Below, in pieces: positions 1,741 to 42,846 of a DNA stretch of 64,000 nt. A model generated the notes under the pieces. That model was not told the DNA's origin, searched no databases, and worked only from the letters and a program-made list of their open reading frames with translations. This DNA is from Octopus sinensis (lineage: Eukaryota). Location: contig NC_043011.1 of the NCBI RefSeq assembly GCF_006345805.1, positions 496,001 to 560,000 of the forward strand. The letters are read 5' to 3'. The position numbers were made by a program, and so were the translations under genes. Each line of letters starts with the position of its first letter. The stretch's first letter is position 1.

Positions 1741-3976
1741 AAATAATATATATATATATATGTATGTATGTATATATATATATATATATATATATATATA
1801 TATATATATTATATATATATATATGACTAAATATTGTTCATGATAAAATAATTTCACCATTTTCTACCTTGTCTTATTTTCCTTATATATATGTATATAT
1901 ATATATAATATATATATGTATATATATATATATATATATATATATATATATATATATATATATATATATATATATATATATATATATATATATGTATATA
2001 TATATATATATATATATATATATACATACATACATACTTGAACACACACACATATACATACATATATATGAGTTGATGTGGGTGTGGGTGAGTGTAAATA
2101 CAACTCTAAAAGCATGCTTGCATGCTGTCGGAGTTGTATTTATGTAATCGAGTGTTCAAGGATATGGGAGTATATACATGTGCGTATTGGATTATGTACA
2201 TATGCACGTGTGTTCCGTACGACTGTTGGTATTCGTTATTACCAGCATTGTTGCTCTTTATCATTACTTCATTTATAATTGTTGTTATTGTTGATGCTAT
2301 TCTTCTTAGCATTTTTACGGTGCGTGCTCTCCATTACAGCTGCTTGTTTTTTCATCATCATCATCATTGCATACACATAGATGTCTGCATATGCATGCAT
2401 ACGTATGAAAATATATGCGTGCATGTATATGCATGTATATATATATATATATATATATATATATATATATATATATATATATATATTTGTGTGTGTGTGT
2501 GAATTCCAGCTTGACTAATCATTGCGCACGCTACCAAATTTATTACTTACTCTCTGTTTTGTATAAGAACAGCAGTTCACAAAGACTGGGTGTGTATATC
2601 TGATAACTTTTAGCAACACAAAGCATGTGTCTTACCATCCGGTCACCTCATTTGTTTCCCAGCGTGCTGTGTTCCTCACGTACAATGTCTATGCGTATAA
2701 TCTCTAAAAACAGTTGCGACAACGCTAAATATAAATGTACACAGATATATCCTGATAGTCGTTGCTTAGCCTTCATTTCTTCAATTAAATTCAATTTGAC
2801 AAAGATCTGCGCACGCCGCCGGAAACTACACCAAAAGTTACAATTCAGTTTCATAACCTTTATCTGCAAGCTAATATTAAACCAGTGAGGAATTCTGTAC
2901 GAGGTCACTCTTCGTTCAGAGATAGTAACAATACGTCCATCACATCATGCTCTATTGTCTTAACAATTCGACGACGAAAGGCACACTGTGTCTAAAAAGG
3001 ACGTAATGACTGCAACCGTAGCGTTTAGATAACAACACAACGTGATTAAATATCATCAAAGCTGAATTCTCTCATTCAAACTTTTTCTTCTCTTCTCTTT
3101 AGGAATCTTTCCCAAGGAACATAATTTTCATCTCTTCTAACAGATTCATTAGATGAAACGTGCATTCTCTATTTTTACAAGTTCATCGGGGAAAGAGAGT
3201 CAAATTCACGCAAATTGGAAGAAGTAGTATTAGTAGTTGTAGTTTCTGAGTTAGGAAGACAAATCAATCCACTTGTGAACTAGCGACTGTAGTGAGATGC
3301 CTTCTGAGACTTCATTGCAAGTAGTTCTGGTCATCGTTGTAGAAGTCGCAGTTCTAACAGGAGAGAAAATCCCATCAAAGCTTCAGATGAGACACAATAT
3401 TTCAATGGGCTTTTTTCTGATAGCTCAGATCTGTAAAGGACTTCAAGCTATTCAAAAGATCAACATTTTTAAAGTCCGTAATCAATAAGTTCTCAGTAAT
3501 TAAACATGAACATACATGAAAATAAACATATAGCCGTGATAGTCACCAAAGACGTGATGCATTCATCAAGTAAACAGTGTAGAAGGGCGATAATTATAAT
3601 GGTGTTCTACGAAAAACACGTGATTACAGCATTTAAGTTACATAAATATTCATTTATATAACGAGCAACACTAATCGGTTTCAGCCAGCTATGGATCATA
3701 TGTATAGACAGCCATGGAAATCAGGACTATTTCAACTTCATGGTGCATCATTAACCACCGAAGACTTTACGCAGAATGACAGTTACATTTAAGCTGCTAA
3801 AGGATGATTGCGAAAGAAAATTTCTCAAATACAAATACTGAAGACATAGAAGGGTATAGCATGCGCGACCACATATATGGAAGCCTACATGCAAATGCAA
3901 GCGTATTATTATTTCTCCCTGTCTTTCTTTCTCTTCCTAATCTCTCACTCTGTGTGAGTGTGTGTGTGTGTGTATA

Positions 3977-4387
3977 TCTCTTTCTCTTTTTCTCTTTTAC
4001 TTGTTTCAGTCATTTGACTGCGGCCATGCTGGAGCACCGCCTTTAATCGAGCAACTCGACCCCGGAACTTATTCTTTGTAAGCCCAGTACTTATTCTATC
4101 GGTCTCTTTTTTGCCGAACCGCTAAGTGACGGGGACGTAAACACACCAGCATCGGTTGTCAAGCGACGCTAGGGGGACAAACACAGACACACAAACACAC
4201 ACACATATATATATACATATATACGACAGGCTTCTCTCAGTTTCCGTCTACCAAATCCACTCACAAGGCATTGGTCGGCCCGGGGCTATAGCAGAAGACA
4301 CTTGCCCAAGATGCCACGCAGTGGGACTGAACCCGGAACCATGTGGTTGGTTAGCAAGCTACTTACAACACAGCCACTCCTGCGTCT
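3977..4387 (-). mobile_element. SINE family B (CORE-like), full length; present only in left arm of the inverted duplication
   Basis: Reverse complement GGAGTGGCTGTGTTGTAAG...GGTTCAGTCCC...TTGGGCAAGTGTCTTCT...CCAGCATGGCCGCAGTC; absent at the equivalent point (~40490-40570) of the right arm. Confidence 0.9.
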
Positions 4388-39559: not shown

Positions 39560-42500
39560 TGTATATGTATGTATATGTATGTATGTATAGCTGAAATTTA
39601 TAGTCAGACAAAAGACGAAGACAGGTGTATGAACAACAAGCAAGTGTATCTGTTTAACGCTCGGGAAAAGTGAAAAAGTCTTTTAGGGTTCGACCCTACG
39701 CTCTTCAACAAAAAGGAATAAGAGAAAATAAACAGAGAGAGAATAAACAAAACTTGAGGATTTTAGCAGTTCAGCACATATAAACATATTTACTCGACTG
39801 GTTTCCTCACATATTCCGACTATCAAATTTGCTTCAGCCTGACCAGCTTGATGCTTCAGTAGACGACACATGACTCAAGACGCTAAATAGTAGGATTGAA
39901 GCTGAAACCACGTGGTTGCATTTCAAATTAAGCACATAGGTACGTACTTGCAACCCAGTACAAATCTCTTCAAAGGCAGTGAGCCTGCAAGGAATTTTTT
40001 TATATCTGCTATTAATTACTGCCTGATCTAGCAGCGCTAAACTATGATTGGTTCTTTCATATTCAATCAGGGATTTTTAACGAAGCGATATATAAAACAT
40101 CAGAATTATTTGCAATTAAAAAAAGAGAGCGATAGAGAACAGATAGCCAAAAATAGAGATGACAAAACACTATGAAATATCTTTTGTGGAGCTTTTTGCT
40201 AGAAGGAAACAGTAATGTTTAAAAGAATAAAAGTATACATATCTATATTTAATAAATATTGGGAAACGTGACTCTTGCCATTGTTCTGTATTTTACACTT
40301 GATAAAAAAAACAACTTATGTGTTATATGAATTTGTTTTTTCACTCTCATTCTTGCTCACTCTACCTGTTTCTCTCTCTCTCACTCTCTCACACTCTCTC
40401 TTCATATATATATATATATATATATATATATATATATATATATATATGTTATATTTTCCGTGTCTTTTTATTTAATCCTGAAAATATATATATATATATA
40501 TATATATATATATATATATATATATATATATATATATATATATATATATATATATACACACACACACACACTCACACAGAGTGAGAGATTAGGAAGAGAA
40601 AGAAAGACAGGGAGAAATAATAATACGCTTGCATTTGCATGTAGGCTTCCATATATGTGGTCGCGCATGCTATACCCTTCTATGTCTTCAGTATTTGTAT
40701 TTGAGAAATTTTCTTTCGCAATCATCCTTTAGCAGATTAAATGTAACTGTCATTCTGCGTAAAGTCTTCGGTGGTTAATGATGCACCATGAAGTTGAAAT
40801 AGTCCTGATTTCCATGGCTGTCTATACATATGATCCATAGCTGGCTGAAACCGATTAGTGTTGCTCGTTATATAAATGAATATTTATGTAACTTAAATGC
40901 TGTAATCACGTGTTTTTCGTAGAACACCATTATAATTATCGCCCTTCTACACTGTTTACTTGATGAATGCATCACGTCTTTGGTGACTATCACGGCTATA
41001 TGTTTATTTTCATGTATGTTCATGTTTAATTACTGAGAACTTATTGATTACGGACTTTAAAAATGTTGATCTTTTGAATAGCTTGAAGTCCTTTACAGAT
41101 CTGAGCTATCAGAAAAAAGCCCATTGAAATATTGTGTCTCATCTGAAGCTTTGATGGGATTTTCTCTCCTGTTAGAACTGCGACTTCTACAACGATGACC
41201 AGAACTACTTGCAATAAAGTCTCAGAAGGCATCTCACTACAAGTCGCTAGTTCACAAGTGGATTGATTTGTCTTCCTAACTCAGAAACTACAACTACTAA
41301 TACTACTTCTTCCAATTTGCGTGAATTTGACTCTCTTTCCCCGATGAACTTGTAAAAATAGAGAATGCACGTTTCATCTAATGAATCTGTTAGAAGAGAT
41401 GAAAATTATGTTCCTTGGGAAAGATTCCTAAAGAGAAGAGAAGAAAAAGTTTGAATGAGAGAATTCAGCTTTGATGATATTTAATCACGTTGTGTTGTTA
41501 TCTAAACGCTACGGTTGCAGTCATTACGTCCTTTTTAGACACAGTGTGCCTTTCGTCGTCGAATTGTTAAGACAATAGAGCATGATGTGATGGACGTATT
41601 GTTACTATCTCTTGAACGAAGAGTGACCTCGTACAGAATTCCTCACTGGTTTAATATTAGCTTGCAGATAAAGGTTATGAAACTGAATTGTAACTTTTGG
41701 TGTATTTTCCGGCGGCGTGCGCAGATCTTTGTCAAATTGAATTTAATTGAAGAAATGAAGGCTAAGCAACGACTATCAGGATATATCTGTGTACATTTAT
41801 ATTTAGCGTTGTCGCAACTGTTTTTGTAGAGATTATACGCATAGACATTGTACGTGAGGAACACAGCACGCTGGGAAACAAATGAGGTGACCGGATGGTA
41901 AGACACATGCTTTGTGTTGCTAAAAGTTATCAGATATACACACCCAGTCTTTGTGAACTGCTGTTCTTATACAAAACAGAGAGTAAGTAATAAATTTGGT
42001 AGCGTGCGCAATGATTAGTCAAGCTGGAATTCACACACACACACACACACACACACACACACATACACACACATACACACACACTCTCACAAATATATAT
42101 ATATATATATATATATATACATGCATATACATGCACGCATATATTTTCATACGTATGCATGCATATGCAGACATCTATGTGTATGCAATGATGATGATGA
42201 TGATGATGATGATGATGATGATGATGATGATGATGATGATGATGAAGAAACAAGCAGCTGTAATGGAGAGCACGCACCGTAAAAATGCTAAGAAGAATAG
42301 CATCAACAATAACAACAATTATAAATGAAGTAATGATAAAGAGCAACAATGCTGGTAATAACGAATACCAACAGTCGTACGGAACACACGTGCATATGTA
42401 CATAATCCAATACGCACATGTATATACTCCCATATCCTTGAACACTCGATTACATAAATACAACTCCGACAGCATGCAAGCATGCTTTTAGAGTTGCATT

Positions 42501-42846
42501 TACACCCACCCACATCCACATCAACTCATATATATGTACACACACACACACACACACATATATATATATGTGTGTGTATATATATATATATATATATATA
42601 TATATATATATATACATACATATATACATATATAAATATATATATATATATACATATATATATATATATATATATATATATATATATATATATATATATA
42701 TATATATATATATATATATATATACATATATATATATATACATATATATATATATACATATATCTATCTATCCATCTATCTATCTATCAATCTCTCTCTC
42801 TCTCTCTCTCTCTCTATATATATATATATATATATATATATATATA
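39560..42846. repeat. Right arm of ~3.6-kb inverted duplication
   Basis: Reverse complement of 1887-5510 minus the SINE insertion; microsatellite lengths differ, e.g. (ATG)n at 42188-42245. Confidence 0.95.

Follow-up and report, generated by a model that had tools for sequence, protein, structure and literature searches.

Inverted repeats of 1.6-24 kb flank inversions of 5-226-kb segments in humans, and in one case the repeats have a mean identity of 94%, with a 99.9% sub-block as the likely breakpoint (Aguado et al. 2014, PMC3961182). In Drosophila, staggered breaks leave inverted copies of non-repetitive DNA, 46 bp to 1.9 kb long, at both ends of an inverted segment (Ranz et al. 2007, PMC1885836). 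Duplications with junctions in microsatellite or transposon homology have been described in yeast, where microsatellite-primed duplication is a precedent (MMIR; Payen et al. 2008, PMC2518615), and in insects, where duplications are bounded by microsatellites (PMC3878106). AT repeats are described as sites of breakage and Rad51 repair (PMC12972899). In Adineta vaga, host-like DNA lies between direct termini of Penelope-like elements (PLEs), and the published capture combines pLTRs of one family with a further, inverted pLTR and a target duplication of 8 bp (Arkhipova et al. 2013, PMC3846280).

A 64-kb window of octopus DNA, the whole stretch that was analysed, contains a pair of inverted arms on either side of a 34,049-bp spacer (5505..39553; Table 1). 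Pairs of inverted repeats are a frequent feature of animal genomes, and the analysis reveals no new type of mobile element. Like the human repeats, the octopus arms include a sub-block of higher identity, a 1.85-kb core at ~99.8%, but the human inversions were genotyped in both orientations (PMC3961182), whereas the arms are seen in one sequence and have junctions in TA microsatellites. The octopus arms resemble the Drosophila duplications in that a segment is flanked on each side by an inverted copy of non-repetitive DNA, but they are longer, end in repeats and are known from one orientation (PMC1885836). The pair shares with the yeast and insect duplications the type of junction, a length of >1 kb and an identity of >90%, although the available text of the yeast study does not mention "inverted" and describes no inverted copies (PMC2518615). 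Unlike the Adineta vaga capture, the arms have termini from two families and lack an added inverted pLTR; they show neither a readable target-site duplication nor an empty allele, and they share a microsatellite past the 3' terminus.

Table 1. Features of the inverted pair and its surroundings, in window coordinates.
Feature	Position	Strand	Remarks
Arm A of inverted duplication	1886..5504	+	3,619 bp
Arm B	39554..42844	-	3,291 bp; reverse complement of arm A minus SINE and 40-bp piece
Near-identical core	2101..3950 (partner ~40579-42496)	+	3 substitutions/1,766 non-microsatellite columns
Imperfect hairpin	2095..2142	.	48 bp; outer edge of core, in both arms
Dispersed repeat, presumed SINE	3977..4389	-	Arm A only; within (TG)n(TA)n tract
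40-bp piece	4439..4478	.	Between two TA tracts; arm A only
41-bp piece	4531..4572 (B 40447-40484)	-	Between TA tracts, both arms
Mid-arm block	4741..5340	+	8 substitutions/600
Decayed SINE-head relic inside mid-arm block	5129-5259 (B 39796-39926)		nhmmer E=2.5e-13
Inner Penelope-type 3' terminus, decayed hammerhead	5278..5467 (B 39589-39777)	+	Dispersed family, 4 other window copies
T1 remnant (second Penelope-type terminus)	1827..1885	+	59 bp; between two TA tracts, outside arm A
T1 foldback	42845..43506	.	Halves: 284 matches, 36 substitutions, 22 gap columns
Interior	5505..39553	.	LINEs, SINEs, Helitron-like copies, small foldbacks, unique DNA
Solo-LTR-like insert	5511..6723	.	TGTTA...TAACA ends; TA tract at arm A inner end; class inferred from sequence
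Helitron-like copy	37727..39480	-	5' end adjoins arm B inner microsatellite

That the sequence contains the two arms was confirmed by self-BLAST, in which two blocks align on the minus strand with E=0.0 (1884-3977 with 42734-40552, and 4479-5504 with 40540-39554); with microsatellites masked, the arm blocks are 99.0%, 99.5% and 96.8% identical. With 32 substitutions in 2,631 non-microsatellite positions (98.8% identity), the pair lies above the >1 kb and >90% identity used for segmental duplications (PMC3878106). The arm ends fall in microsatellites, as originally predicted, at 4 of 4 ends by TRF, in a window that is 11.8% microsatellite; the arms fade out in TA tracts of 150-290 bp. There is no third copy of the unique parts of the arms within the window, and no inverted homology in the window past either arm end, including beyond the solo LTR, the Helitron and the foldback. 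A scan of 24-mers against prokaryotic genomes gave 0 matches and is nearly uninformative for octopus copy number.

The arm combines unique DNA with microsatellites and with decayed relics of transposons, and no gene and no terminal repeats of its own were detected in it. None of the 12 read-through frames of arm B matches a Pfam family at E<0.05, with two sub-cut-off matches at E 0.05-0.08, and ARAGORN finds 0 genes in the whole window. A Ser/Thr-rich, frameshifted stretch in the core (~41099-41470, plus strand) resembles an exon and is at most a putative pseudo-exon; the single read-through frame used as a query, 62 residues long, has no homolog (0 of 11 candidates; 0 in 1.84 billion). The 48-bp hairpin has z-scores of -6.1 in A and -5.7 in B (0 of 200 shuffles each), and the 41-bp piece weakly resembles the tail sequence of a Penelope element located at 60.7 kb (p~0.02, uncorrected for 24 comparisons). 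The repeat in arm A, presumably a SINE by its type, differs from the leave-one-out majority of the other window copies at 25 of 346 positions (7.2%) and from its nearest copy at 31 of 351. Its dating is ambiguous and, set against ~4% per lineage at the arm edges, leans slightly toward a SINE that predates the duplication and was therefore lost from arm B.

The original prediction held that the arms differ only by scattered substitutions and microsatellite length changes. In fact, some 500 bp of arm A is absent from arm B, and the substitutions are clustered, with a change point in divergence at 3950, the site of the SINE (permutation p=0.0002). With segment limits that were set after the alignment had been viewed, substitutions number 3/1,766 in the core, 8/600 in the mid-arm and 21/265 at the edges, and the outer part (6/1807) differs from the inner part (26/824; p=7e-9). 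Three separate edge segments agree with each other (3/41, 9/97 and 9/127; homogeneity p=0.82), and their ~8% divergence may overstate age because the edges adjoin microsatellites or fall in high-copy repeats, settings in which mutations and errors may be more frequent. The core also has 3 short deletions of 1-2 bases, in short runs and all in arm A, and at the inner Penelope-type terminus each arm has private derived changes. This blocky divergence suggests arm-to-arm gene conversion that homogenised parts of the arms; the same identity blocks would also result if a young duplication had later recombined with a divergent allele. The SINE indel and the block-wise identity, both overlooked in the first reading of this DNA, are its most informative features.

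The original prediction set four possible origins side by side and preferred none of them. The pair is read here, at about an even chance, as a small inverted segmental duplication that arose via DNA template switching at TA microsatellites and Penelope termini and was later partly homogenised by gene conversion. The mechanism is a reconstruction from one sequence. Breakage, or a fork that stalled, inside a long (TA)n tract would have provided an end, which may have invaded a TA tract ~40 kb off in the opposite orientation, probably helped by the T1 terminus beside both tracts. About 3.3 kb would have been copied before a return, by a presumed repair route, via the (TACA)n/(TA)n tract in which the far junction lies. 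The SINE and the 40-bp piece, the indel seen between the arms, would either have been bypassed in B or lost from it between TA tracts, or have been gained later by A. The arms would then have drifted to ~8%, and the block-wise pattern now present may reflect later conversion between them, with the youngest conversion tract probably halting at the SINE heterology.

Local duplication is supported by the ordinary genomic cargo of the arms, which includes microsatellites, the decayed relic of a SINE and a terminus with a dead hammerhead but no Pfam family. The position of the four ends in microsatellites, the blocky divergence and the lack of a third copy and of inverted homology beyond the ends are counted in its favor. 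The (TACA)n that runs past the inner Penelope terminus in 2 of 2 arms and in 0 of 4 other family copies fits DNA copying. Against the template-switch model, arm B has a (GA)n/(GATA)n block that separates T1 from the main TA tract and has no counterpart in arm A, which interrupts the contiguous homology.

The outer ends were predicted to share a common terminus. A 26-mer is indeed found beside both arms, and it occurs three times in the window (1860-1885 minus, 42845-42870 plus and 43481-43506 minus; 0 of 100 shuffles), but it forms the end of a separate foldback, within which its partner lies at 43481. Moreover, the two sides are alike only in part: the 28 nt of T1 beside the TA tract are identical between the A and B sides, and the next 31 nt differ at 8 columns (Fisher p=0.005). 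This fits a junction inside two different T1 copies, but the same 28 nt are identical between the two foldback halves, so that the identity may reflect family conservation rather than a junction.

The inner ends were predicted to coincide with a hammerhead-bearing terminus. There is a Penelope-type terminus at this point, but its hammerhead is decayed, with core, stem II and stem III positions lost in the arm copies, and the shared (TACA)n extends past it. A minimal-hammerhead descriptor that requires an intact core, stem II, a palindromic stem III and NUH, and that was composed after the motifs had been viewed, is passed by 0 of 2 arm copies and by three sites in the window, at 43418, 56432 and 60627 (0 of 200 shuffles); it presumes that an A6C variant is allowed. 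These three sites share with the minimal type I hammerhead of PLEs its core, its palindromic stem III, the additional base ahead of stem II and the U3-A8 variant. Rfam gave 0 matches in the whole window at gathering thresholds, and none of 9 hammerhead regions had a significant z-score in RNA folding, as is expected for minimal motifs. The site at 43418 lies in the right half of the T1 foldback, and the left half has a decayed hammerhead with a predicted cut before 42903. T1 and the inner terminus do not cross-match and belong to different families.

Among the alternatives, a staggered-break inversion is unlikely. The interior would have inverted once, with single-copy DNA between staggered nicks duplicated in inverted orientation at both breakpoints, and the inverted copies of otherwise unique DNA at both segment ends have this geometry. 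Duplications of this kind are described at 17 of 29 inversions in Drosophila (PMC1885836), and both possible ancestral joins at the octopus locus fall within TA tracts and hence give no contradiction. On the other hand, the 3.3-kb arm exceeds the 1.9-kb maximum of that study, there is no split gene or element by which a second breakpoint could be recognised, and T1 on both outer sides needs an extra assumption.

Also unlikely is an assembly artefact, by which two alleles of one locus would be represented as two arms, one of them misplaced through the microsatellites and high-copy termini at its ends. The blocky 0.2-3% divergence and the presence or absence of the SINE resemble two haplotypes, every arm end is in a long TA tract, and the core indels, 3 of 3 in short runs of arm A, are like residual long-read error. 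However, there are 0 ambiguous bases (N) in the window, the long TA tracts are resolved, and each arm has distinct flanking elements at both ends. A LINE frame of 653 codons has no frameshifts, so base quality is not generally poor. False duplications in assemblies are usually adjacent and direct, and thus differ from inverted arms with a 34-kb unique spacer.

It is doubtful that arm A arose by retrocopying of 3.3 kb of host DNA, with a 5' end made by hammerhead self-cleavage and 3' priming at a Penelope terminus of another family. In this scheme the hammerhead of the B-side T1 would have cleaved a read-through RNA of that element, reverse transcription in trans would have started from the downstream Penelope terminus, and the product would have entered a TA tract 40 kb off in inverted orientation. 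The evidence on such a PLE-driven transduction, as the original prediction had it, is mixed and mostly against. The A-side unit starts exactly at the predicted cleavage site: the first base of the 59-bp T1 remnant is the first base after that site, and the remnant matches the 59-nt 3' cleavage product. The T1 family has a hammerhead that passes the descriptor, the far end of the unit is a same-strand Penelope 3' terminus, and a Penelope-like element is present at 56.3-60.7 kb of the window. PLEs are described as able to move host DNA in trans (PMC3846280) and as preferring (TA)n (PMC8557442), an insertion site that is seen here but is not specific, as most window elements sit in TA tracts. The 8 differences in the 59 nt are borderline against the 7.9% edge rate (P=0.10).

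Against a retrocopy, the shared (TACA)n would not be expected if reverse transcription begins at the terminus without target homology, as described in anole (PMC11167929); the copy does not end at the 3' terminus in either arm. The bounding termini come from two families rather than one pLTR family, and the B-side T1 hammerhead is decayed and fails the descriptor. In addition, 7 of the 8 differences in the remnant are private to the A side (p=0.035), which suggests another T1 copy as its source. The anole study, in its available text, has no reads starting at the cleavage site and finds cleavage not needed in vitro (PMC11167929). The arm junctions lie in TA tracts, where a target-site duplication is unreadable, and no report of ribozyme-delimited host retroduplication was found in the open-licence literature. 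Likelier than full retroduplication, though somewhat short of an even chance, is that the 59-nt T1 remnant alone is a cleavage-defined insertion; other short pieces in nearby TA tracts make stand-alone tail insertions plausible. Template switching leaves the hammerhead-site start unexplained unless the remnant is an older, independent insertion. The hammerhead-site boundary, which can be counted genome-wide, is the single detail with wider interest, since it bears on what ribozyme cleavage does in Penelope transposition. Were the retrocopy true, it would be genomic evidence that hammerhead-cleaved RNA serves as a template and that Penelope termini can together produce local inverted duplications whose interior can flip.

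No less doubtful is chance inverted pairing of two members of a dispersed, multi-copy repeat, such as a non-autonomous element with cargo. The window does have dispersed pairs of similar size and identity: the Helitron-like copy and its sibling at ~23210-25063 are 6.0% apart (84/1410), and a LINE 3' end pair 3.0%. The arms, however, have no third copy in 64 kb and no element-type ends, and a 0.2% core beside 7-9% edges is unexpected for two independent insertions. By our own estimate from genome size, two copies within 40 kb would require thousands genome-wide.

It is highly improbable that the pair is a giant foldback or a composite DNA transposon whose terminal inverted repeats of 3.3 kb enclose 34 kb, in spite of the long arms with a common outer 26-mer, the many small foldbacks in TA tracts of the window and a decayed hAT-like remnant seen by eye at ~32.6-34.1 kb, because the 26-mer belongs to the separate foldback, no element-specific termini or target-site duplication besides TA can be defined, the Penelope tails point inward in the arms and outward in the T1 foldback, and no intact transposase was found in the interior. 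No host gene was found in the interior either, and 0 of 84 interior ORFs of at least 62 aa, chosen outside the LINE regions and the microsatellite-rich ORFs, match Pfam, nor does the hAT-like remnant. Capture of the arm by the Helitron was rejected, since arm B is at the Helitron 5' end and arm A has no Helitron. The Helitron-like copy has a weak, below-cut-off PIF1 match (E=0.014) and, by eye, a 3' hairpin and CTAG; the hairpin is not significant.

The arms are a plausible inversion substrate. The long, near-identical inverted repeats on which NAHR inversion depends are present in this one sequence, with just 3 substitutions in the 1.85-kb core. The suggestion that the arms could mediate inversion of the interior thus stands in principle, on structure and by analogy to the human repeats (PMC3961182). 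Signs of interior inversion were not seen in GC skew or in SINE orientations, judged by eye from few copies, and no split gene or element occurs at the arm ends in the window. As far as is visible no gene is affected, so the biological weight is low, and no function is implied for the inverted duplication. If local duplication by template switching holds, the pair illustrates, in a modest way, how small inverted duplications in cephalopod genomes are seeded by TA microsatellites and the ends of transposons. Recombination in the core would flip the interior, with a predicted crossover interval of 2101..3950. The SINE lies inward of the core and should travel with the interior, which would make it a ready marker for an inversion polymorphism.

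Two inverted arms lie where the original prediction had placed them, arm A at 1886-5504 (3,619 bp) and arm B at 39554-42844 (3,291 bp), separated by a spacer of 34,049 bp. Over five non-microsatellite blocks (2,631 positions), A and B differ by 32 substitutions and 7 small indels. The further claim that they differ only by scattered substitutions and microsatellite length changes fails, given that A alone carries a SINE, at 3977-4389, together with a 40-bp piece at 4439-4478, neither of which is in B, and that the divergence is blocky. At the SINE site, B passes directly from (TG)n to (TA)n. 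Substitutions number 6/1807 outward of this site vs 26/824 inward (p=7e-9), and the best divergence change point is 3950 (permutation p=0.0002). With segment boundaries set after the alignment had been inspected, 3 substitutions fall in the 1,766 columns of the near-identical core (2101-3950) and 8 in the 600 of the block at 4741-5340; the edge segments, three in all, show 3/41, 9/97 and 9/127 (pooled 7.9%; mutually homogeneous, p=0.82). Each of the three core indels is a 1-2-base deletion in A, and these may be sequencing errors.

From the outside in, each arm begins with a long TA tract, followed by unique-looking DNA that holds a 48-bp hairpin, then by CAT/TA/TG microsatellites and another 1.45 kb of unique-looking DNA; further in come TA tracts holding short pieces, a decayed SINE head (5129-5259 in A), a Penelope-type terminus (5278-5467 in A) and a (TACA)n tract. 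No third copy of the unique parts is present in the window, no Pfam match at E<0.05 is found in 12 read-through frames of arm B, and no homolog of the exon-like stretch is found with a single frame as query. The arm appears to be ordinary genomic DNA rather than the body of a transposon. Within the window, inverted homology does not restart past the elements at either arm end.

A 26-mer common to the outer ends occurs three times in the window and never in shuffles. It is the 3' end of a Penelope-type terminus, T1, and lies outside both arms, as predicted. On the B side, a self-contained foldback (42845-43506) has T1 as its left half; identity within the foldback peaks at the outer ends and drops toward the centre. 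A motif pattern for minimal hammerheads, composed after the motifs had been seen and including an assumed A6C variant, matches at 43418, 56432 and 60627 in the window (n=3) and nowhere in 200 dinucleotide shuffles. A minimal hammerhead of the U3-A8 variant, which PMC4209133 describes, lies in the right half of the foldback. On the A side, T1 is reduced to a 59-nt remnant that starts at the base right behind the predicted cleavage site and equals the predicted 3' cleavage product in length. Its last 28 nt are identical to T1 beside B, and 8 columns differ in the first 31, 7/8 of these differences being specific to A. Further 40-100-nt pieces in TA tracts (4439-4478, 4531-4572, 18502-18600 and 21704-21800) may be tails like this remnant.

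The terminus at the inner ends belongs to a dispersed family with 6 copies in the window, all of which went into its profile. The two arm copies carry the same alterations of the core and of stems II and III of the hammerhead, and neither passes the minimal-hammerhead pattern, so that the ribozyme must have decayed before duplication; each arm also has later changes of its own. The inner ends had been said to coincide with a hammerhead-bearing terminus; a Penelope-type terminus is there, but its hammerhead is decayed and (TACA)n extends beyond it. This tract follows the terminus in both arms and in 0/4 of the other copies in the window.

The likeliest account of the feature is that it is a small segmental duplication in inverted orientation, partly homogenised later. 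Template switching at the DNA level is the preferred origin of the pair, at about even odds. A TA tract next to one copy of T1 would have broken, and strand invasion would have repaired it from the TA tract next to a second T1 copy 40 kb away, with resolution in a (TACA)n/(TA)n tract. Such a repair would explain why T1 stands at both outer ends, why the remnant diverges in its 5' half and why the arms have an inner microsatellite in common. Accounts of yeast describe long AT repeats that break and are repaired via Rad51 exchange (PMC12972899) and duplications seeded by microsatellites and transposon homology (PMC2518615), and duplications bounded by microsatellites are described as common in insects (PMC3878106). 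A single slip between TA tracts would lose both the SINE and the 40-bp piece at once, and this leans slightly toward A as the donor; SINE dating is compatible with this but ambiguous, at 25/346 from the majority of copies in the window and 31/351 from the nearest one. Later arm-to-arm conversion, stopping at the SINE heterology, would explain the blocky divergence. Against this account, the halves of the foldback are likewise identical over the last 28 nt of T1, an additional (GA)n/(GATA)n block separates T1 from the TA tract in B, the arm edges lie in mutable contexts, and the identity blocks would look no different had a young duplication recombined with a divergent allele.

An inversion by staggered breaks is an unlikely source of the pair, given that the arm exceeds the 1.9-kb maximum stated in PMC1885836, although the geometry agrees with that account. 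An assembly artefact would suit the allele-like divergence but is improbable for a gap-free, inverted layout with copies 34 kb apart and distinct flanks. It is doubtful that a dispersed repeat was paired in inverted orientation by chance. Equally doubtful is hammerhead-delimited retroduplication by Penelope, in which the remnant would start exactly at the predicted cleavage site, as it does. Host capture has precedent (PMC3846280), and a TA preference and inverted Penelope terminal repeats are reported in PMC8557442. However, two findings contradict what defines this origin: T1 and the inner terminus are of different families, and the copy extends beyond the inner terminus, whereas PMC11167929 describes Penelope reverse transcription as beginning at the tail with no need for target homology. 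The giant foldback among the origins first proposed deserves almost no credence, given that it has no termini of its own and no readable target duplication, that 0/84 interior ORFs match Pfam (LINE regions and microsatellite-rich ORFs excluded), and that the Penelope tails face inward, with the T1 foldback tails opposite.

By analogy, the inverted 1.85-kb core, at ~99.8% identity, would be the type of substrate behind recurrent human inversions. Among the human repeats described in PMC3961182, one case averages 94% identity with a sub-block at 99.9%, compared with ~99.8% for the core here. Given that the SINE lies on the inner side of the core, a haplotype with an inverted interior should have it linked to the flank on the foldback side.

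The window, 64,000 bases long, contains no N; tandem-repeat masking covers 11.8%, and there are 39 merged (TA)6+ tracts. The labels SINE, Helitron, solo LTR, RTE, R4, hAT and mariner are presumed from anatomy and general background unless search evidence is given.

Repeats and other features of the window
Feature	Position	Remarks
Ser/Thr-rich exon-like stretch	~41099-41470 (+), 3060-3430 (-)	after AG acceptor-like site; several frameshifts common to both arms
Significant 48-bp hairpin	2095-2142 and 42455-42502	start is outer limit of near-identical core
Solo-LTR-like insert	5511-6723	next to inner end of arm A
Helitron-like copy	39480 to 37727	5' end next to inner end of arm B
Helitron-like pair, one family	23210-25063 and 37727-39480	direct repeats; 6.0% divergence across 1,410 columns; 3' ends differ
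RTE-like 3' end with C2H2 zinc fingers	6830-7750	zinc fingers by Pfam
1-kb 3' fragment, L1/Tx1-type LINE family	9317-10335	ahead of near full-length copy; 30/1012 different
Near full-length L1/Tx1-type LINE	10419-16200	in (ATT)n tract; single in-frame stop at 13957-13959
208-bp direct repeat, 100% identical	20910-21117 and 21405-21612	27-bp inverted partner 20876-20902
hAT-transposase-like remnants, highly decayed	~32600-34100 (-)	by eye
Older inverted pair	44585-44746 and 54505-54663	72.6% over 168 bp; ~10 kb apart; beyond arms
3' end of R4/Dong-like LINE, then (TACA)n	46000-47050	by eye, without Pfam support
Mariner-like element, 36-bp inverted ends	49181-49729	by eye, without Pfam support
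Decayed Penelope-like element	56346-60713	RT and GIY-YIG-like remnants by eye; RT-like clusters
Small foldbacks	7826-8047, 8053-8253, 18606-18816, 18873-20019, 21790-22645, 42845-43506, 55047-56309	most in TA or TAT tracts

No Pfam match is found for the hAT-like remnants, and the 208-bp direct repeat is a very young duplication or an assembly slip. The interior L1/Tx1-type LINE matches Pfam models for an endonuclease (E=5.8e-11) and RVT_1 (E=3.9e-30), and its best species-named animal match is from Argonauta hians (67%), the matches ranked above it bearing no species name. With the match of an RT-like fragment described below, this makes the host an octopod, probably Octopus. Inverted repeats of 755 bp, which differ by 6.2%, bracket the decayed Penelope-like element, and each holds a well-formed minimal hammerhead (minus strand at 56432, plus strand at 60627) as well as an inserted SINE. 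An RT-like fragment at 57070-57660 matches a protein of Octopus bimaculoides (71% over 44%; 1/721 candidates).
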